Counted from the stretch's first letter, positions 4,262 through 48,013 are shown. The stretch is DNA of 64,000 nt from a virus (IMGVR_UViG_2784746770_000001:65293-129292), one strand, 5' to 3'. Notes: generated from the sequence alone by a model not told the origin. Numbers and translations: made by a program.

Positions 4262-4699
4262 ATGGCAGGCGAGACCGTCATCACCGTCGTCGGAAACCTG
4301 GTCGACGACCCCGAGCTCCGCTTCACCCCGTCCGGCACCGCGGTCGCGAAGTTCCGCGTCGCGTCCACCCCCCGCACCTTCGACCGTCAGACCAACGAGT
4401 GGAAGGATGGCGAAGCGCTGTTCCTCTCCTGCTCCGTCTGGCGCCAGGCCGCGGAGAACGTTGCCGAATCCCTCCAGCGCGGGACGCGCGTGATCGCGCA
4501 GGGTCGACTGAAGCAGCGGTCCTACGAGGACAACCAGGGCGTCAAGCGCACGGTCTACGAGCTGGACGTCGAAGCCGTGGGGCCGGACTTGAACCGCGCT
4601 ACCGCGAAGGTCACGAAGATACCGGGGTCGCGCGCACCCGGGCCGGCGCCTTCCAGCGGCACCGACCCCTGGTCGAGAGACCAGGGGCCGCCCTTCTAG
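4262..4699 (+). CDS. ssb: Single-stranded DNA-binding protein
   Basis: [25 protein letters not shown], the actinobacterial SSB signature; C-terminal PPF. Confidence 0.96.
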
Positions 4700-7359: not shown

Positions 7360-7675
7360 CGGCTCCACTCCAGATGTCGGCTCTGTCGGAACGTCATCTT
7401 CCGACAGAGCCAGCGGCATGTGCCAGCGTCGATTAGAACGTAGAACCGAAAACCGCCGCTTCACCCCAAAATGGTCAAAAGGTCATCATGGGTCGTTCGC
7501 CCGTATTTGGGAGATAGTGAATCCCGCATGAACAGGGGCAAACACGACGTGAGCACCGTCGGTTCACAGATGAGCAGTTACGGAACTGTTACCGGGGGAT
7601 TGTCACGTCGGCGCTGCCCGTCTACCCGCGATCCGCGGATTCACTCTGGCGCGCTGGCGCGAATCGGAACCGCGC

Positions 7676-7726
7676 TATCTTGGTGTGCACTATCGTGTGC
7701 GCAACGCGCCGGGAAGAGCGACCCGG
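7676..7726 (+). promoter_or_regulatory. Degenerate box TATCTTGGTGTGCA, -10 TATCGT and AAGAGCGA hairpin copy 2
   Basis: CCGGG-AAGAGCGA-CCCGG at 7709-7726, 20 nt before ATG 7747. Confidence 0.65.
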
Positions 7727-7746
7727 GCACCGGAAAGGAGCGGCGC

Positions 7747-7947
7747 ATGGACAGCGCCTCGTGGAGGAAGGCTCTCGACCGCCTTCCGTTCAAGGAGTGG
7801 CTGCCGGCTGAAGAAGTGCCGGCGCACACCGGGATCAACCCCGACGACGCCCTCACCGTGCTGCGCCGTGCGCGGCGGGCGGGCTCCCTCTGCACGACCG
7901 GCCGCGGCAGTGAGATGCAGGTCATGCGCGTCCGGCGGATCGTGTGA
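7747..7947 (+). CDS. Small hypothetical (possible winged-helix) protein
   Basis: Strong AAAGGAG RBS; 66 aa. Confidence 0.6.
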   Translation: MDSASWRKALDRLPFKEWLPAEEVPAHTGINPDDALTVLRRARRAGSLCTTGRGSEMQVMRVRRIV

Positions 7948-7953
7948 TCCCAC

Positions 7954-8065
7954 TCGATAACCGGCCCCAGGCCCCCCTGCGTAGCTGGCGTCTTTTCACG
8001 CGCCAGGCCCGGGCCGCGCTTCCGCGCGGGCACCAAGGACGAGAGGGCCTGGGGCCGGTTATCGA
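7954..8065. repeat. Perfect 21-bp inverted repeat enclosing a 70-nt structured loop
   Basis: TCGATAACCGGCCCCAGGCCC (7954-7974) / GGGCCTGGGGCCGGTTATCGA (8045-8065). Confidence 0.85.
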
Positions 8066-8154
8066 CTCGACCAGATGAGGGCGTCTGCTGGCACGATGCA
8101 CGCAGCCCCGCCTGCCCCGGACTTTCCCGCCCGCTGACCCACAGGACGCCTGCC

Positions 8155-15313: not shown

Positions 15314-16878
15314 TGTCCCGCCGCACTCTCCTCGCCGCGTCCGCGGCCGTCGCCGGCGCCCTCGGCATAGCCCGCCCTGCCGCCGCCGAGGAGGGCAGCG
15401 CCGCCCGCGCCGCCACCCCGCTCTACCTCGCCCCCGCCCGCCAGCAGCTCACCGCGCTCCGCAACGGCTACATCTCCAGCCGGGACCTGCTCGAACAGCT
15501 CCTCGCGCACCACGCCAAGCACAACCCGAGCCTGAACGCCGTCGCCACCCTCGACGCGGCTGCCGCCCGTGCCGCCGCCGACAAGGCCGACCAGTACCTC
15601 GCCAGCACCGGCTGGACCCTCGGCCCGCTCCACGGCCTGCCGATCACTGTCAAGGACGCTCTGGAGACGAAGGGGATGCGCACCACCTGCGGCTCCCCCG
15701 ACCTCACCGGCCACATCCCCACCACCGACGCCGACGCCGTCGCCCTCCTGCGCGCCGCCGGCGCCATCATCATCGGCAAGACCAACGTGCCGGTCATGTG
15801 CCAGGACATCCAAACGAGCAACCCGCTGTTCGGCACCACGAAGAACCCCTTCGCTGCCGACCGCACCGCCGGCGGCTCCTCCGGCGGCCCCGCGGCCGCC
15901 GTCGCCGCGGGCCTGTCCTCCCTCGAAGTCGGCTCCGACCTCGCCGGATCGCTTCGCCTCCCGGCCGCGTACTGCGGCGTCTACGCCCTGCGGACCAGCC
16001 GCGGCACCTCCCCCATCGTGCCCACGCGCGGTCACATCCCGCGCCCGCCCGGCTGGCTCACCAGCAGCGACATGCTCTCCCTCGGACCGATCGCCCGCAC
16101 GCCCGCCGACCTCGACCTCCTCCTGGACGTGCTCGCCGCCCCGGCCCCGGCCGACGCGTCCGCCTGGCAGATCAACCTCCCGGCCCCCACGAAGACGTGC
16201 CTGAGCCAGTACCGGATCGGTATCTGGGCCGATGACGCGTACTGCCGCGTCGGCGCCGATGTCCGCGGCCTGCTCGCCACGGTCGCCCAGGCCGTCCGCA
16301 CCGCCGGCGCGCGCGTCGACGACACCACGAAGCCCGTCGACTTCGCGGCCAGCGACAAGTTGTTCCAGCGCCTGATGTACGCGACGTCCGCCGCCAGCTC
16401 CACCGACGCCGCGTTCGCCGGCGAGGTCGCGGCCGCCGACGCCCTCGCCGACGACGACCCGAGCGCCCTCTACCTCAAGAGCCGCACCATGCGACACCGC
16501 GACTGGGCGCGCGCCGACGAGGACCGGCAGAAGCTCCGCGCCACCTGGGCCTCCTACTTCGAGACCCACGACATCCTCATCACCCCCGCGGCCCCGACCG
16601 CCGCCGTCCTCGACCAGACCTCCGTCCCGGTCCCCCAGCGGTACATCACCGTCGACGGCCAGAAGCGCTCGTACTACGACCAGACCGCGTGGATCAACCT
16701 CGCCGGACCGGTCGGCCTCCCCTCGCTCGTCGTCCCGGCCGGCCAGACCGCCGACGGCCTCCCGCTCGCCATCCAGCTCATCGGCCCGCACCTGACCGAC
16801 CGCACCCTCATCTCCGTCGCCCAGCTCCTCGCGAACGTCCTTCCGACCGCCCCGAAGGCCCCGGCGCTCGCCGGATAG
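15313..16878 (+). CDS. Tat-exported amidase-signature family amidase
   Basis: SRRTLL Tat signal with an AAA cleavage site; GPLHGLPITVKD, GKTNVP, GGSSGG and GSDLAGSLRLPAAYCG motifs. Confidence 0.92.
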   Translation: MSRRTLLAASAAVAGALGIARPAAAEEGSAARAATPLYLAPARQQLTALRNGYISSRDLLEQLLAHHAKHNPSLNAVATLDAAAARAAADKADQYLASTGWTLGPLHGLPITVKDALETKGMRTTCGSPDLTGHIPTTDADAVALLRAAGAIIIGKTNVPVMCQDIQTSNPLFGTTKNPFAADRTAGGSSGGPAAAVAAGLSSLEVGSDLAGSLRLPAAYCGVYALRTSRGTSPIVPTRGHIPRPPGWLTSSDMLSLGPIARTPADLDLLLDVLAAPAPADASAWQINLPAPTKTCLSQYRIGIWADDAYCRVGADVRGLLATVAQAVRTAGARVDDTTKPVDFAASDKLFQRLMYATSAASSTDAAFAGEVAAADALADDDPSALYLKSRTMRHRDWARADEDRQKLRATWASYFETHDILITPAAPTAAVLDQTSVPVPQRYITVDGQKRSYYDQTAWINLAGPVGLPSLVVPAGQTADGLPLAIQLIGPHLTDRTLISVAQLLANVLPTAPKAPALAG

Positions 16879-16944
16879 CCCAGCGGCAGCAAGTTCCGGT
16901 GGTCCGGCCCTCGCGGGGGTGGGGCGGGGCCGCCGAGCAAGACA

Positions 16945-16976
16945 AGGGGCCAGGGTTCGTGTGAACCCTGGCCCCT
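16945..16976. terminator. Bidirectional hairpin terminator
   Basis: 14-bp perfect stem AGGGGCCAGGGTTC-gtgt-GAACCCTGGCCCCT between convergent genes. Confidence 0.8.
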
Positions 16977-17010
16977 CGTTTATGCCGGACGACTTGGCAG
17001 CATCGGCACG

Positions 17011-18294
17011 TCAGATCGTACGCAGCCCCGCCCGAGGCGCGGTCACGCCCACCCGCCACCGAGACGGCTGCGCCGCACCCTTCCAGCGCGGCACACCGCT
17101 CGGGCGCGGCACGGCCCGCTCCGGCCGCTCACCCGGCAGGTCCCACCCGCTGATCACGACCTCGGGATCGATCAGCGCCTCCACCGCTGGCCAGACCATG
17201 AACGGCGACAGGCGGACCAGCTCGGCCAACTGCTCGCGCTCCTCTTCGGACTGCCCCAGCCCGGCCGCGGGCTGCGACACCTGCTCACGGGCGGAGGCCA
17301 GCAAGGTGGGCCGGTCAAGGTGGATCGGCACGCCGTGCAGGCCGTCCCACGTGCCGTCGCTGTCGATCAGGAGGCGCAGCTCGGGCCGCCCCGTGTTGGA
17401 GTCGTGCTCCAGGTGCACGAAGACTCCCCGGACCTGCGGGAGCGTCCCGGCCTCCGCCAGCGGAGTCGACGGCCAGGCGATGTAGACGCAGTGCTGCGGC
17501 AGTCCTTCGAGGATGCGCTCGCGCGGCAGCGGCTTCTCGGCGGGGACATCGGGCTGGGCCCACGCTGCTGCCACGTGCTTGGCCGCCGCCTCGTCGTCGA
17601 CCCAGTACACGCCCTTGGTCAGCCACCAGGCCGAGAGCGCCGCCACCCGCGCGATGTCGCCCGCGCGCGGGTCGCCCGGGAACCCGCCCCCGTGGGGGTA
17701 CACGACACCGGCCGCCGCTCCCATCGGCACCCAACACCAGTCCGGCCACGCGCCGACCTCCTGGGTCCCCTTGCGGTCCGCGTGCTGGGCCATCTCGGCG
17801 AGGACACCGGGGTACCGCTTGCGCATCTCGCGGACCAGGCCCATGCAGCGGTCGGCCGCCTCCGCGGTCACCTTCTCCGGATCGGACGGCGCGGTCTCGT
17901 ACGACTCCGCCGCCGGGGCCGGGACGGTGAACAGCGGCGTCGCCGGGACCTCCTCCACGCCGTCGCCGTACTCGTCGTCCGCCTCGTCCGTGATCAGACC
18001 CAGGGTGAGGTCATAGGGCAGCTTGCAGACGACGAAGCCGTCCACCATCCGCCACCCGGCCCGCTCGACCGACTTCACCGGCGCGGGCACCAAGTTGTCC
18101 AGCAGCGTCTTCCGGGCCGGGGCGTCGCCGAGCTCGCCCAGGTCGAGAACCACGAGGATGCTGTGCCCGCCGTCCAGCGTGTAGCAGTGCCAGGGGGCCA
18201 GGTCCTCGGGCAGCTTCCGCCCGTAGGTGCGTCCCGGCATGGTCATGCCGGCCAGTACGGTCGCGATGACCATGCCCGGGTCTACGGTGCTCAC
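17011..18294 (-). CDS. Hypothetical protein
   Basis: GAGGAGAGG RBS; 427 aa; high-GC3 codons. Confidence 0.8.
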   Translation of the reverse strand: MSTVDPGMVIATVLAGMTMPGRTYGRKLPEDLAPWHCYTLDGGHSILVVLDLGELGDAPARKTLLDNLVPAPVKSVERAGWRMVDGFVVCKLPYDLTLGLITDEADDEYGDGVEEVPATPLFTVPAPAAESYETAPSDPEKVTAEAADRCMGLVREMRKRYPGVLAEMAQHADRKGTQEVGAWPDWCWVPMGAAAGVVYPHGGGFPGDPRAGDIARVAALSAWWLTKGVYWVDDEAAAKHVAAAWAQPDVPAEKPLPRERILEGLPQHCVYIAWPSTPLAEAGTLPQVRGVFVHLEHDSNTGRPELRLLIDSDGTWDGLHGVPIHLDRPTLLASAREQVSQPAAGLGQSEEEREQLAELVRLSPFMVWPAVEALIDPEVVISGWDLPGERPERAVPRPSGVPRWKGAAQPSRWRVGVTAPRAGLRTI

Positions 18295-18344
18295 AGGTAC
18301 CTCTCCTCAGGGGTGAAGCGGGTAGGGGCGGTAGCGCGGTAGAC

Positions 18345-18510
18345 CGGCTCCGCCCGTTCTTTCCGCGCCTACGGGCGCGGTCGCGTCGGTACGCAGCCCC
18401 GCGGAGGCGGGGAGAAAGGGCTTCGGCCCTTCGTGGTGCCTCACGTGAGTGAGGAGCAGGGCCGCGAGTCGACTCGGGCCGAGAAGCTCACCCTAGCGGG
18501 GTGAGGGGAC
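18345..18510 (+). ncRNA. Candidate multi-hairpin ncRNA
   Basis: Seven consecutive short hairpins; + strand loops include C(UACG)G, C(UUCG)G, GUGA and GGAG. Confidence 0.55.
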
Positions 18511-18549
18511 GCCGCTCAGGCCAACAGTCCGGCCGGGCGACGCAGGTGG

Positions 18550-19278
18550 TCAGCGCAAGATGCGGGCCATCGGGCAGCGCGAGAGCCCAAAGGTCTCGGT
18601 GCACGCGTGCGGTGTCTCGGGGTGGGCGGCCTTCACGGCGGCCTTCACATCGTCGTCCAGGCGCCGGATGTGCTGGGGGCCTTGGATGCGGGGGTCCCCT
18701 TCCGCCGTCCACCCGCAGGAGCACACGGCGGCGGTGACCCGGATGGGCATGGGCCCATTTTTCGCCCGGCGGGGGAGTTCCACGAGTACCGGGACCAGGG
18801 TGTGAGGTCCGAGGCCCGCGCCCTGGAGGACGTCCAGGCGCCCGAGCGCGTCCGCGACCTCGTGGCCCGCGTCCCCCGCCATGGCCAGCAGCAGACTGCC
18901 CCGGTTGTCGATCCACCAGGACGCAGAGGCGTTCTTCAACGCCTTGTCCACGATGACCTCGCCGAGGTCCTTCCGCGCCTCAGGGAACGCCTTCCGCCAG
19001 CTGTCCGCCATACCTCGCACGGTGCCGATCGCGTCCGCTCGGAGCGTCTGCGCCCACGCCACCTGCCGCTCGGTCCCCGTCAGGTCCGGCCAGCCGGCGG
19101 CCGCGGCCGCCGCAGCGTTCACGGTGCTCTCCTCGCGCCGCTGGGCCTCGACACAGGAGGAACAGTCGCTCTTCTCCATCCACTCCATGGTTTCCCCGCG
19201 CCTCTTGTGCGGGCCGATCAGGTCCACCCGCTCCTCGTGCCCGCAGGCTCGGGTGATGTCGTACTTGGCCATACTCAT
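18550..19278 (-). CDS. Hypothetical protein with Cys motifs
   Basis: ACGHEE..DCSSC..LTGTERQVAWAQTLR..ASWWIDNR, a recurrent phage/plasmid protein pattern. Confidence 0.8.
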   Translation of the reverse strand: MSMAKYDITRACGHEERVDLIGPHKRRGETMEWMEKSDCSSCVEAQRREESTVNAAAAAAAGWPDLTGTERQVAWAQTLRADAIGTVRGMADSWRKAFPEARKDLGEVIVDKALKNASASWWIDNRGSLLLAMAGDAGHEVADALGRLDVLQGAGLGPHTLVPVLVELPRRAKNGPMPIRVTAAVCSCGWTAEGDPRIQGPQHIRRLDDDVKAAVKAAHPETPHACTETFGLSRCPMARILR

Positions 19279-19333
19279 CCTCTCGGTGATGGTGCCGGAC
19301 AGGATGCCGGGCGCCGCTGACAGCGCCCGGCAG

Positions 19334-19546
19334 TTACGCGGATTCAGCGAAGCACTCCGGGCACGTCGAGGCGGGCTCCTCAGGGTGCTCGGAGCACACC
19401 TCCATGACCGTGTAGGGGGTGTCTCCGTCGTCTTCGGCTATGAGTTGGGCGGCCACGGCCAGGGCCTCCGCGCGGCCGGCATCGCCGTAGAACGGGCCGT
19501 CGACCATGGCGGCGCCGTCCTCGAAGACGCCGTACTCGGCGCTCAC
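19334..19546 (-). CDS. Small hypothetical protein
   Basis: GTGA-coupled to the upstream gene; C-terminal C..H...CPEC. Confidence 0.65.
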   Translation of the reverse strand: MSAEYGVFEDGAAMVDGPFYGDAGRAEALAVAAQLIAEDDGDTPYTVMEVCSEHPEEPASTCPECFAESA

Positions 19547-20994
19547 TTCGCGGCTCCGGCCGGGCGCCGGTAGCGGTTGCACTCCTGGTCGTGCGGCCGG
19601 CCATGGCCCTCCTGGGCGTAGCAGTCGCAGTGACGTGAGACAGGAGCGGTGATCCAGTCGGCGACGGCGGCGGCCAGGACGGTGGAGTCCGCGAGGCAGT
19701 CGAGCACGGCAGAGTCGCCCCCGTTGATGTACACCGGGTCGCCGACGGCGTTGCCGTACTCGTCGTGCAGGAACATCGACCACCCGGTGTGCTCGTCGGC
19801 CGGATGGTCGACCGAGCCGTCACGATCGGCGATCGACAGGAAGCCGACAGCACCCCGGGTGAACGGGACCGGCACCCGGTACTGGGCGCTGCTGCTGTCG
19901 TAGACGCACGACAGCTCCCGGCCGGGGGTAATCCCGTACTCGCCGAGCACGGCCAGCAACCGGGCCCCGGCCGCGGGCACCGGCGCGGCGGCGGGAGGCT
20001 GCTCGTAGAGCGCCGCCGCGGCCTCCCACCACGTCTGGCGCAGGGCAGCGTCCTCCCGAGCCTGGGCGCACTGCCGGCGCTGTGTCCCCATGCCGCCGGC
20101 CAGCGGGGCGTACAGGTGCGGGATCGAGGGGCGCAGCAGGTCCGCGTACTCCTTCCCGCCGAGGAAGATGACGTCGGCGTCGTCCAGCCCGAGGCCGGCC
20201 GCGTGCTGGCCCATCCTCTCCGCCGTGACGGCGTTCTCGTCGCCGATCCTGACGTTGTACGGGTGGAGGGGGCGGGTAATGGGGACGAGCCCGTGGAGCG
20301 CGGAGGCTATGAAGATCAGAGACGGGTCGGTCAGGGCGTCGGCCACGCTGCGCAGGGATCGGTGGTAGTCGCCGATGTACAGCTCTCCGGCCGGGTAGCC
20401 CGGCAGGGAGCCGCCGTACTCGTTGAAGCCCGGGTGCGGCCGCTTCTTCTCCCCGCAGGCAATGATGACGACCCGTCGCCGCCGGACTCGGATGCCGCCG
20501 CGCTGCCGGGCGTACTCGCGGCCGAGCTCGGTGAGGTAGAGCGACCGGCCGGTGTCCTCCCACGTTGCCGGCGTCCTGTCCCACGACGCGGGCCGGATGT
20601 CGGCGTAGCCCTTCGCGTTGACCTGCCGGAGGGTGGGCCCGCGGAACCACGGCTCGTGCCGGTTCTCCCCATGCGCGTCGTCGCGCCCGGCCACAAGCTG
20701 GTCGGGCCGACGGGCGGCAGTGATCACAGCTTCGTGCTGCCGTTCGGGCAGCTTCGGCAGAACGCCCACGCTGGCCGGAAGGGACTGGAGGGACTGAGGG
20801 GACGGGTTCGCTTCACGCCATGCGTCCAGGGCCGCACGGCCGGCGTCGGTCACCCGGCGCGTGCCGTCGACCTGCCTGACGATCAGGTGGTCGGCTTCGA
20901 GCTTGGCCATGGCCGCCGGATGTCCGGTGACGAGCCCGTTGTCGTTGCTGTCGAGGATCTTCGCGCCTGTGGGGCTGAGCAGAGAGGTGGACAT
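19543..20994 (-). CDS. Multidomain protein with a DUF6884-like domain
   Basis: VVIIACGEKKR..PAGELYIG..IFIASALHGLV..PYN..FLGGKEY..PLAGGMG; GAAGGA RBS. Confidence 0.75.
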   Translation of the reverse strand: MSTSLLSPTGAKILDSNDNGLVTGHPAAMAKLEADHLIVRQVDGTRRVTDAGRAALDAWREANPSPQSLQSLPASVGVLPKLPERQHEAVITAARRPDQLVAGRDDAHGENRHEPWFRGPTLRQVNAKGYADIRPASWDRTPATWEDTGRSLYLTELGREYARQRGGIRVRRRRVVIIACGEKKRPHPGFNEYGGSLPGYPAGELYIGDYHRSLRSVADALTDPSLIFIASALHGLVPITRPLHPYNVRIGDENAVTAERMGQHAAGLGLDDADVIFLGGKEYADLLRPSIPHLYAPLAGGMGTQRRQCAQAREDAALRQTWWEAAAALYEQPPAAAPVPAAGARLLAVLGEYGITPGRELSCVYDSSSAQYRVPVPFTRGAVGFLSIADRDGSVDHPADEHTGWSMFLHDEYGNAVGDPVYINGGDSAVLDCLADSTVLAAAVADWITAPVSRHCDCYAQEGHGRPHDQECNRYRRPAGAAK

Positions 20995-29660: not shown

Positions 29661-29869
29661 TTGGCCGGCCCCCTCGCTCTTGGGGGCCAACGAGAAAGAA
29701 TGTACACCGTCTTATGAGAACGGTGTCAAGCCCCGCCCTTCAATGGCTCCCTCTTCGGCCCGCATGGAGGGGTATCTCGGGTCTCTTTCATAAGTGGGTG
29801 TACAAATGGCATTGCTTGCCTCTATGATGGTGGAGCACCAACCGGCACGGAGCGGCAAGAGCGAGCCGC
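29661..29869. promoter_or_regulatory. Divergent control region with two boxes and two AAGAGCGA hairpins (copies 4 and 5)
   Basis: Leftward: TTGACA-N19-TACATT with dyad ACACCGT..ACGGTGT and hairpin 29667-29688. Rightward: TAAGTGGGTGTACA (29791-29804)-N18-TATGAT and hairpin GCGGC-AAGAGCGA-GCCGC at 29852-29869. Confidence 0.8.
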
Positions 29870-29903
29870 ACCCGTCGCCCGGCCACACCAGAAAGGGACC
29901 CCT

Positions 29904-43442: not shown

Positions 43443-43457
43443 CCTGCGAGTTTCTAC

Positions 43458-43630
43458 CCTCATGCGCTGTAGCGCATGAGGTCACCCACATGCGGCAGAG
43501 CGCATGAGGTCACCCCCCACATGCGCCACAGCGCATCCGGCCTCATGCGCTCTGGCGTACGCGGCCTCATGCGCTGTGGCGTACGTAAACAAGATGTAGT
43601 TCAACCCAGATGAACCGAACCAGATGAACT
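43458..43630. repeat. Array of five 18-bp palindromic units plus two CCAGATGAAC direct repeats
   Basis: CATGCG-N6-CGYAYS units at 43461, 43489, 43520, 43544 and 43568; direct repeats at 43606 and 43620. Confidence 0.85.
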
Positions 43631-43710
43631 TCACCGGTGGTGGCCCTCGGCCTGGCCCCTCGCGGCCCGCTCGGGCCGGGCGAGTCCGAGGCCGACGAGC
43701 GGCCTCGCGC

Positions 43711-46240: not shown

Positions 46241-48013
46241 ATGCCCACGCCGCCTCCGTCCCGCACCGCCGCCGCCGAAGCGGCCACCGCCTCCAAGGAG
46301 AAGCGGTCCGGCGTGCGGTCCAAGGAAGCCGGGAGCCTCGCCGACCAACTGCTGAGTGCTCCCGTCCCCGTCCGGCGCGAAGCCTTCCGTCGGTTCGGCC
46401 ACGCCGACCAGGCGCAGATCCTGACCGAGGTCGAGCGTGAGACCGGCTCCCTGTACGGCCTGTGGCACGACACCCCGAGCGGGTTCATCGAGGACGTCCT
46501 CGGCGAAAGCATCTGGTCGAAGCAGCGGGAGATCGTCGACGCCATCCCGAAGTACAAGCGGACGATGGTCCCCGCGGGGTTCGGCGTCGGGAAGACCTGG
46601 ATCGCGGGCCGCCTCGTCGCCTGGGCTGGCGCGGTGAACCCGCCCGGCACCATGCTGATCGTCACCACCGCGACCCGCTTCCGGCAGGTCCGCAACCAGC
46701 TCTGGCCCCACATCCGGAAGACGATCGCCCGCGCGGGCCTGCCCGGCTTCTGCGACGAGGTCCAATGGAAGATCCCCGACCAGTGGGGCAACGACGTCCG
46801 AGTCGCCTACGGCTTCACCGCCCAGGCCCACGACGAAGCCTCCATGCAGGGCATCCACGGCACCCCGAAGCTCCTCATCGTCGTCGACGAGGCCGGCGGC
46901 ATCGCCCGCGCGATCGGCAACGGCACCAACAACCTCCTCACCGGCGAAGCGGCGCTCCTCGGCATCGGCAACCCCGCGATGGACGACCCCCGATCCTGGT
47001 TCGAGCTGATGTGCGAGGAGGGCGAGAACCCCGACGAGCCGACCACCGTCACCATCCCCATCGCCACCTTCGACAGCCCGGCCATCACCGGCGAACGCGT
47101 CCCCTACTGCAACGACTGTCCCCCCGGCGTGCCCAGGCACTCCCTCGCCACCCACCTGCCGGACATGGACTGGGTCAACCGCACGATCCGCGAGTACGGC
47201 GAGGACCACCCCTACGTGATCGCGAAGGTGCACGCCAAGTTCCCGAAGGGCGGCGGCGGCAAGGTCATCCCCATCACCTGGATCGAGGACGCCAAGGCGG
47301 TCGAGGACCCCACCGGCCCGGGCTGGGTCCGGCTGTGCGACCTCGGCCTCACCGGCGAGACCGCGAAGCACACCGTCCGCCGCGGCGCCTGGGTCCGTCT
47401 CGGCGTCGACGTCGCGGCCGACGGCGGCGACGAGTTCACCATCTACCGGATCGTCGGCGACGTCGTCGAGCACCGCCACCACTCCAGCGGCTCCGCCAAC
47501 GACAACCAGGTCCGCGTCGCCAAGAAGATCCTGGAGGAGATCCACGCTGCCGAACGCCTCGCGCAGGCCCTCGGCAGCCCCCACCAGGTCCGCGTCAAGG
47601 TCGACAAGAACGGCCTCGGCCACGGCGCCGTGTCGATGCTCAAGACCTGGGGGGAGAACGGCCGGCACAACTCCGCCATCGTCGGCGTCATGGTCTCCGA
47701 AGCGCCCCTCCGAGACGACCCCGGCGCCGTCATGCGGCCCTACACCAAGCGCGACGAGATGTGGCTCGCCACCCGAGCCCTCCTCCAGCCCGACCCCGAG
47801 ACCGGGGTCGGCCGACTGCGCCTCCGCGTCGACCATGACGCCGCCATCCAGCTCTCCACCCCCAACCTCGAATACAACTCCGGCGGTCACGTCGTCGTGG
47901 AGTCCAAGAAGAAGATGCGGGCCCGCGGGATGAAGAGCCCCGACCGCGCCGAGGGCATCCTCCTGTCCATCTACGAGTCCGAGCCGATCCGGAACCGCGG
48001 CCTGCTCAACTGA
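46241..48013 (+). CDS. terL: Phage terminase large subunit
   Basis: WSKQ adenine motif, Walker A PAGFGVGKT, Walker B IVVDEA, GNP coupling motif, nuclease LGVDVAADGGD..VKVD..SPDRAE. Confidence 0.93.
   Translation: MPTPPPSRTAAAEAATASKEKRSGVRSKEAGSLADQLLSAPVPVRREAFRRFGHADQAQILTEVERETGSLYGLWHDTPSGFIEDVLGESIWSKQREIVDAIPKYKRTMVPAGFGVGKTWIAGRLVAWAGAVNPPGTMLIVTTATRFRQVRNQLWPHIRKTIARAGLPGFCDEVQWKIPDQWGNDVRVAYGFTAQAHDEASMQGIHGTPKLLIVVDEAGGIARAIGNGTNNLLTGEAALLGIGNPAMDDPRSWFELMCEEGENPDEPTTVTIPIATFDSPAITGERVPYCNDCPPGVPRHSLATHLPDMDWVNRTIREYGEDHPYVIAKVHAKFPKGGGGKVIPITWIEDAKAVEDPTGPGWVRLCDLGLTGETAKHTVRRGAWVRLGVDVAADGGDEFTIYRIVGDVVEHRHHSSGSANDNQVRVAKKILEEIHAAERLAQALGSPHQVRVKVDKNGLGHGAVSMLKTWGENGRHNSAIVGVMVSEAPLRDDPGAVMRPYTKRDEMWLATRALLQPDPETGVGRLRLRVDHDAAIQLSTPNLEYNSGGHVVVESKKKMRARGMKSPDRAEGILLSIYESEPIRNRGLLN

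Follow-up and report, generated by a model that had tools for sequence, protein, structure and literature searches.

Genomic context of the hairpin-rich spacer

The analyzed window of 64,000 nucleotides spans bases 65293-129292 of an IMG/VR virus record that is 129,292 nt long and an estimated 94% complete. The window is the right half of a Gilgamesh-like Streptomyces phage genome (~129 kb), with a GC content of 67-74%. Among 50,697 phage records, the sole near relative was Streptomyces phage Gilgamesh (129,136 nt); we found no literature naming both ‘Streptomyces phage’ and ‘Gilgamesh’. Genes were called by a simple method based on third-position GC. The hairpins described here sit in a 255-nt non-coding gap (18295-18549) with a leftward gene on either side:

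18550-19278, − strand: upstream gene, gp107-like, 242 aa, homologue of Gilgamesh gp107; third-position GC 0.90
18300-18308, − strand: Shine-Dalgarno sequence GAGGAGAGG of the downstream gene, 5 nt before the GTG start at 18294
17011-18294, − strand: downstream gene, 427 aa, mosaic, GTG start at 18294

The gp107-like protein was 50% identical in amino acid sequence to Gilgamesh gp107 over its full length, and Gilgamesh was the only phage record with a full-length match. It matched the PHROG family phrog_16123, which has no assigned function, and a Pfam search returned no match. In the downstream gene, the N-terminal 110 aa correspond to the C-terminal domain of Gilgamesh gp105 (its final 110 aa). 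What follows matches a distinct gene for a 260-aa protein on a Streptomyces linear plasmid (75% DNA identity). The domain shared with gp105 is N-terminal in the plasmid proteins. The start of the downstream gene and its first residues (VSTVDP) are common to the related loci L006, L131 and L132.

The two genes are the last of a leftward block that runs from ~29690 down to 17011 and meets a convergent rightward block at a 14-bp hairpin within 16879-17010. This hairpin is perfect, with the loop GTGT, and on both strands the gap that holds it yields some of the most stable 166-nt windows genome-wide. It is probably a bidirectional terminator.

We observed no coding signal in the gap 18295-18549, where third-position GC was 0.64-0.79 compared to at least 0.82 in genes. 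A small protein gene was rejected because every frame contains stops and the third-position GC signal is absent. A tRNA or tmRNA remnant was rejected, as the window contained no such genes. A mobile element or a repeat family was rejected as well: a BLAST comparison of the gap with the phage genome returned nothing beyond matches of 21-25 nt (E ≥ 0.05).

Hairpin content of the spacer

The first-pass annotation had described seven hairpins in this spacer, and we found all of them, at the coordinates listed below. Their stems (H1-H7) contain 4-8 pairs, Watson-Crick only, with loops of 4-5 nt. Together with two further hairpins, the spacer contains the following:

18326-18355: P2, a 12-pair GC-rich hairpin with two bulges (−22.1 kcal/mol on +, −21.6 kcal/mol on −)
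18363-18380: H1, CCGCGCC-TACG-GGCGCGG, perfect 7-bp stem, loop TACG
18383-18505: distal array, six tandem hairpins (H2-H7) with linkers of 2-7 nt
18383-18394: H2, GCGT-CGGT-ACGC
18397-18412: H3, CCCCGC-GGAG-GCGGGG
18416-18431: H4, AAGGGC-TTCG-GCCCTT
18439-18454: H5, CCTCAC-GTGA-GTGAGG
18460-18480: H6, GGCC(G)CGAG-TCGA-CTCGGGCC
18487-18505: H7, CTCACCC-TAGCG-GGGTGAG
18507-18547, − strand: stop-proximal irregular hairpin, 14 pairs, 4 of them G·U pairs that form on − only

In density of perfect hairpins, the spacer is among the top two sites genome-wide. Counted over 250-nt bins, its bin shares the maximum of the 129,292-nt genome, with five perfect hairpins (stem of at least 6 pairs). The 255-nt gap likewise has five, compared to 2.7 per kb in genes and 3.6 per kb elsewhere between genes. 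Against dinucleotide shuffles, the RNA fold of 18345-18510 had a z score of −2.66 on the + strand (2/200 as good) and −3.84 on the − strand (0/200). With DNA parameters, which give no credit for G·T pairs, the z scores were −5.09 and −4.98 on the two strands (0/200 each). For the whole spacer, the minimum free energy was −138.7 kcal/mol on + versus −133.0 kcal/mol on −, and the z score was −2.42 versus −4.52. The stop-proximal hairpin reached −20.3 kcal/mol on − (z = −2.20; 8/200 shuffles as good) compared to −17.0 kcal/mol on + (z = −1.07), and it recurred in the − strand fold of the whole spacer.

The boundaries of the element as first annotated did not hold. Its start at 18345 splits P2 midway. 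Of the two closing helices that had been suggested, GCTCC/GGAGC is lost because GCTCC (18347-18351) is the 3′ arm of P2 instead, and TTCT/AGAA appeared only in folds of the truncated stretch, being missing from the whole-spacer fold.

Other hairpin-rich sites were recorded in this genome. The second hairpin-dense gap (43443-43636) lies between two rightward genes and holds five hairpins, one with a 10-bp stem, none with a UNCG or GNRA loop. Left of the window, G000:C1:44532-44672 and 46559-46697 contain perfect palindromes centred on CATG, with stems of 11, 20 and 21 bp, which give the most stable windows genome-wide. Two divergent gaps, 7465-8154 and 29691-29903, share a 5-bp hairpin with the loop AAGAGCGA, possibly a repeated regulatory site.

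The distal array is shared with Gilgamesh

H2-H7 matched, hairpin by hairpin, a six-hairpin array behind Gilgamesh gp107 (L005 4457-4600), which is the densest hairpin cluster in its 10-kb locus. A seventh scanner call in Gilgamesh (4560-4582) overlaps two of the six hairpins and was left out of the count. The two arrays are equal in number, order and register of hairpins and differ in stem sequences; H3 is the sole hairpin whose stem is identical in both phages. The stop-proximal hairpin, like the distal module, corresponds to the Gilgamesh spacer after gp107. Three consecutive hairpins aligned between the phages with one one-base gap (61 vs 62 nt). The outer two comprise 12 pairs, of which four were changed on both sides and none was broken, a covariation that carries little statistical weight with two array carriers only. 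The middle hairpin showed one further double change by eye, the aligner being one column out of register. We counted no wobble pairs in H1-H7 or in the six Gilgamesh stems, as in terminator stems. The Gilgamesh spacer had fold z scores of −3.64 on − versus −3.21 on +.

Because the flanking proteins are only 50% identical and six perfect hairpins nevertheless stay in register, this comparison indicates that pairing in the distal array is under selection. The original suggestion that the hairpins are selected is thereby borne out: Gilgamesh carries the same tandem set in register, with two-sided changes that keep the pairing. An alternative is that the hairpins have no function of their own and arose as template-switch by-products in a GC-rich spacer, their likeness to Gilgamesh reflecting shared descent. 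The known carriers number two, a third relative (below) manages without the array, and hairpin density in other gaps barely exceeds that in genes, all of which would fit such an origin. However, neutral drift would have broken pairing at 50% protein identity, and six hairpins are intact, perfect and in register with changed stems. We therefore consider this alternative very unlikely.

Alternative pairings were also observed within the arrays. In Gilgamesh (L005 4542-4600), the segments CGCGCAC/GTGCGCG/CGCGCAC/GTGCGCG can form three mutually exclusive hairpins in an attenuator-like manner, and CCTCAC/GTGAGG/CTCACCC/GGGTGAG permit similar alternative pairing in this phage.

The gene order differs among the relatives. 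Gilgamesh has gp107, six hairpins, gp106, a promoter block with P2, and gp105. The provirus contig L006 has a gp107-like gene, 43 nt with one short hairpin (by eye), a promoter block with P2, and the next gene; the six-hairpin array is missing. Its absence from this third relative means that the array is not indispensable, and it counts against the RNA element as first annotated. The stretch 18345-18510 had also been read as a single folded RNA, and it proved to be made up of two modules, between which Gilgamesh has a gene. The L006 record (G404) is classed as a provirus in IMG/VR and is 87% complete, and Gilgamesh has a ParA-like gene two genes away. The Gilgamesh-like phage group may be temperate.

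We found no further array carriers in searches of phages, IMG/VR, metagenome contigs and genome contigs. A single-protein search of IMG/VR for carriers returned none, and in an alignment search of IMG/VR the L006 contig alone, of 45 loci, was full length. All 80 loci kept from metagenome contigs share the N-terminal domain only, and six loci with the downstream domain came from genome contigs.

The array could instead act at the DNA level, as cruciforms or single-strand hairpins (a priming or initiation signal, or a landing pad for a protein), or mark a recombination boundary between mosaic modules. The stems of the tandem array are all perfect Watson-Crick, and the DNA-parameter z scores are equally exceptional on both strands. 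The spacer is also a mosaic junction, since gp106 is found in Gilgamesh only and the domain make-up of the downstream gene varies by relative. Against this, every hairpin differs in sequence, so no single binding protein fits; the region is not repeated elsewhere in the genome; no replication genes were recognised adjoining the spacer; and L006 does without the array. We give a DNA-level signal only a small chance.

A portable promoter and leader module

The proximal module (18326-18380) consists of P2, a pyrimidine linker and H1. Counterparts of P2 and H1 lie directly upstream of gp105-like or related genes in six other records (L140, the same place as L137, was counted once with it). In all six, the block at the H1 position reads TGTCAGTG-N8-(A/C)AGAGT on the gene strand:

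L005 4107-4128: Gilgamesh, gp106-gp105
L006 4770-4791: provirus contig
L131 2900-2921: linear plasmid
L133 4036-4057: linear plasmid
L135 678-699: Streptomyces chromosome
L137 705-726: Streptomyces chromosome

The RecA-NDp motif, tTGTCRgtg-8nt-TannnT, marks an actinobacterial RecA-independent DNA-damage promoter (PMC5656591) and is the binding motif of PafBC (PMC6789036). The block in the relatives fits this motif except at the first −10 base, which is A or C for T. P2 of the relatives begins a few bases after the −10-like hexamer. With transcription starting a few bases before P2, P2 would thus be the 5′-terminal hairpin of the mRNA.

We scored the motif as TGTCRGTG-N8-NANNNT. It was not found within 18295-18549 of this phage, where the best match had 4 of 11 specified bases wrong. 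Comparison with the six relatives indicates that the proximal module of this phage is a decayed copy of the promoter and leader, with the motif lost and H1 in place. A better match was observed before the upstream gene:

19301-19322, − strand: RecA-NDp-like promoter motif TGTCAGCG-N8-CATCCT, 23 nt before the gp107-like start

This site has one mismatch to the scored motif and C instead of T at the first −10 position, and a 10-bp hairpin (19305-19332) holds it in its loop and 3′ arm. The equivalent site in Gilgamesh (L005 5421-5442) is exact, TGTCAGTG-N8-CATGCT, with the first −10 base left free. These motifs before gp107-like genes suggest that host DNA-damage control of the PafBC type may act on the phage genes. 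We found no WYL-domain (WYL/PafBC-like) regulator gene in the phage. The gp107-like gene and the downstream gene probably share a single promoter near 19300.

Across 401 Streptomyces genomes, the DNA of the element had one true match (G002) and 16 other short matches. The four of these 16 that we checked (L142, L144, L150, L156) all carry the promoter motif. In two of them (L142 1490-1511, L144 1502-1523), the motif is followed after 6-8 nt by a leaderless ORF, for an AlkZ-like DNA glycosylase and for a methyladenine glycosylase. Its place before DNA glycosylase genes fits a DNA-damage regulon and supports the reading as a DNA-damage promoter. The portable module is made up of the RecA-NDp-like motif, a GC hairpin of 9-13 bp, a Shine-Dalgarno sequence and a GTG start. 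Phages, linear plasmids and Streptomyces chromosomes carry it ahead of genes that are unrelated or mosaic, and the 401-genome sample contained one full match.

Tetraloops and the transcribed strand

The first-pass annotation had placed a folded RNA of unknown class on the + strand, opposite to both flanking genes. Among the four perfect tetraloop hairpins of the gap, three have UNCG or GNRA loops on + (C-UACG-G, C-UUCG-G and C-GUGA-G) compared to none on −. The other 262 tetraloop hairpins of the genome (stem of at least 5) have such loops 5 times on + and 15 times on − (3.8% per strand; background 3.8-5.1% per strand). The enrichment is significant (binomial P = 2e-4; 5e-4 with stems of at least 6), as a post hoc value for a region picked for its loops. 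The + strand bias claimed for these loops is thus statistically real within this genome (3/4 vs ~4%). A post hoc chance effect, as the reading without function would have it, is consistent with a region chosen for its loops, and we hold it to be very improbable. As a conserved hallmark the special loops fared less well: the Gilgamesh tetraloops are GGUG, GCCA, CGAG and CAGU, none of the four being UNCG or GNRA on either strand.

Because the array stems are Watson-Crick only, the comparison of the two phages is blind to strand, and other hints as to the transcribed strand point both ways. Each hairpin is 0.5-1.8 kcal/mol more stable on +. In a GC-regressed ranking of 3229 genome windows of 166 nt, in which G/C skew is uncorrected, the + strand ranked 33 and the − strand 491. 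The linkers are purine-rich on + (19/25 in this phage, 19/28 in Gilgamesh). By eye, one pair in P2 of Gilgamesh, L137 and L131 is G·T on + and would be A·C in the mRNA, the variable pair of P2 across relatives reads A-T, G·T and G-C in + orientation, and the H1 counterpart of L006 has a T·G pair that likewise fits + orientation. On the other side, T was more frequent within 8 nt after the 13 hairpins of both phages on − than on + (19/104 vs 7/104; Fisher P = 0.02). The shuffle z scores of the whole spacer, of 18345-18510 and of the Gilgamesh spacer are all stronger on −, and the four G·U pairs of the stop-proximal hairpin likewise point to that strand. We found no canonical terminator (a hairpin with at least 5 T in 8) on either strand of 16500-20000; the best hairpin tail had 3 T of 8.

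A small structured RNA read rightward, lying antisense to the intercistronic region and acting as a cis-antisense regulator or decoy, would fit the special loops, the lower absolute free energy on +, the high + strand rank, the purine-rich linkers and the wobble pairs of the P2 and H1 counterparts. It might be antisense to the downstream ribosome-binding site, with hyperstable tetraloops that would confer RNase resistance. Several results argue against such an RNA. A scan for sigma-70-like promoters and for terminator-like sites found none on +, which told against the element as first proposed, and left of the array the two phages share no sequence able to act as a promoter. The special loops are lost in Gilgamesh (0/4), L006 lacks the array, and the stretch is a composite of two modules. 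No Rfam family was matched at gathering score in the window or at five related loci, so that the Rfam check gave the proposed RNA no known class. Local matches only reached E values of at least 0.38 (mir-3960, ar14, mir-197 and RAGATH-10; E = 0.38-6) and were rejected as chance. UNCG and GNRA loops are poor partners for loop-loop antisense pairing. On this evidence we consider a rightward structured RNA unlikely, and its action on the ribosome-binding site no likelier.

Hairpin H3 and CRISPR repeats

RNA anti-CRISPRs (Racrs) are solitary repeat units (PMC10651486). A more specific alternative is that a transcript bearing H3 binds Cas6e as a Racr-like decoy for a host type I-E CRISPR system. 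The stem and loop size of H3 (CCCCGC-N4-GCGGGG) equal those of the repeats in 4/4 casE-adjacent Streptomyces CRISPR arrays (five casE regions were inspected, one without an array). casE was present in 65/151 sampled Streptomyces genomes, and H3 is the only stem identical in Gilgamesh. However, the flanks of H3 are unlike repeat handles on either strand (by eye), and the pattern occurred at least once in 13/100 shuffles of the window. A 9.9-Mb genome without casE has 11 copies of the pattern versus 8 of a reversed control, and the Rfam CRISPR-DR models were unmatched even at E ≤ 10. With unlike flanks and a chance-level pattern, H3 as a mimic of a CRISPR repeat (Racr or solitary repeat unit) was set aside, and we judge the decoy extremely unlikely.

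We regard it as distinctly unlikely that the array is an RNase-resistant rightward multi-hairpin RNA (UACG/UUCG/GUGA) that silences the downstream gene or soaks up a host factor. In its fullest form, and with the same slight chance, this RNA would run antisense through the spacer of a phage operon of the DNA-damage type and, to silence the downstream gene, would pair across its leader and ribosome site. One of its hairpins has the stem found in type I-E CRISPR repeats of the host genus, and the RNA would represent a class of antisense or decoy RNA without a described family. A rightward RNA, should there be one, would count as a new regulatory or decoy RNA of phages. The data do not support the claim of a new antisense RNA.

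Proposed role of the hairpin cluster in a leftward mRNA

We favor an array that acts through the leftward RNA as an intercistronic cluster of terminators, attenuators or stabilisers, to which we assign a probability of about 0.5; the strand and the termination activity are what we infer. The leftward mRNA is favored by where the array lies, by the composition of the hairpin tails and by the masking predicted for the ribosome site. The cluster starts 3 nt past the gp107-like stop (18550), and in the relatives the array ends before the promoter-like block. With a stop codon on one side and the next promoter block on the other, the array occupies the place expected of a terminator or attenuator. 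Its linkers of 2-7 nt and a first hairpin 3 nt past the stop fit the hairpin-cluster termination units of Gupta & Pal 2021 (two or more hairpins less than 15 nt apart and within 80 nt of the stop). Clusters with spacings below 15 nt have been put forward as units of termination that are commoner in GC-rich genomes and need no U-tails (PMC8355165). In the Term-seq data of S. clavuligerus, 353/535 highly structured 3′ ends had no U-tract (PMC8269248).

Partition-function folding of the leftward RNA gave one further feature:

18450-18460, − strand: pyrimidine-rich anti-Shine-Dalgarno sequence CCUGCUCCUCA, overlapping an H5 arm and the H5-H6 linker

This stretch pairs with 18300-18309 (pair probability 0.92 for 18456-18303), and the total pairing probability of the Shine-Dalgarno bases was 0.89-1.00. 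H5 had a probability of 0.03 in the leftward RNA, being displaced by this pairing. The same pairing was present in the minimum free energy and centroid structures of the leftward fold.

Under this model, transcription would start at the RecA-NDp-like promoter near 19300 and cross the gp107-like gene. The transcript would then reach eight GC-rich hairpins spaced 2-7 nt apart, which may serve as terminators or attenuators without U-tails and as blocks to 3′ exonucleases, setting how much message reaches the second gene. In RNA that reads through, the pyrimidine stretch 18450-18460 is predicted to pair with, and mask, the Shine-Dalgarno sequence of the second gene. By comparison with the relatives, P2 and H1 are the remnant of that gene's own promoter and leader module.

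Several observations weigh against the leftward reading: there is no canonical terminator, hyperstable loops are confined to +, L006 lacks the array, the − strand ranks 491/3229, the promoter near 19300 is imperfect, and only two phages carry the array. The + strand bias of the hyperstable loops is a residue that the leftward reading leaves unexplained. If this reading is true, the spacer is an unusually large and clean hairpin cluster that sets expression between two actinophage cistrons. The cluster stays in register across phages with half-identical proteins. In addition, a host DNA-damage-type promoter and leader module moves between phages, linear plasmids and chromosomes, and shows decay too.

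Comparison with known systems

Like the Racrs of PMC10651486, H3 is a hairpin in non-coding phage sequence, and it has the stem and the loop length of a host-genus I-E repeat. It differs in showing no handle likeness, and its pattern arises in 13% of shuffles; we do not file it as a member. It was in the mRNA of phage T4 that UUCG hairpins first drew attention (PMC4371310). The spacer shares with the T4 C(UUCG)G hairpins, as that source presents them, hyperstable UNCG loops on a C:G closing pair in a phage non-coding stretch. The T4 hairpins are on the mRNA strand, whereas those found here are opposite to both flanking genes and are unconserved in the nearest relative.

With the RecA-NDp/PafBC promoters, as outlined in PMC5656591 and PMC6789036, the relatives share a gene-strand motif exactly at the H1 position, and this phage has a one-mismatch copy before its upstream gene (19301-19322). 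The H1 spacer itself is different in lacking the motif (at least 4/11 bases wrong), the phage has no WYL-domain gene, and the first −10 base in the relatives is A or C.

A further comparison is with hairpin-cluster (‘I-shaped’, U-tail-less) intrinsic terminators of GC-rich bacteria. There are eight hairpins here, compared to the usual two or three in the accounts that PMC8355165 and PMC8269248 give of such clusters. The cluster also differs in lying inside an apparent operon, with special tetraloops on the opposite strand and termination that is only inferred. As in those clusters, the hairpins are short, GC-rich and less than 15 nt apart; they begin just past a stop codon and have no U-tract, in a genome of 71% GC. 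The hairpin cluster is a real, selected structure of a known general kind.
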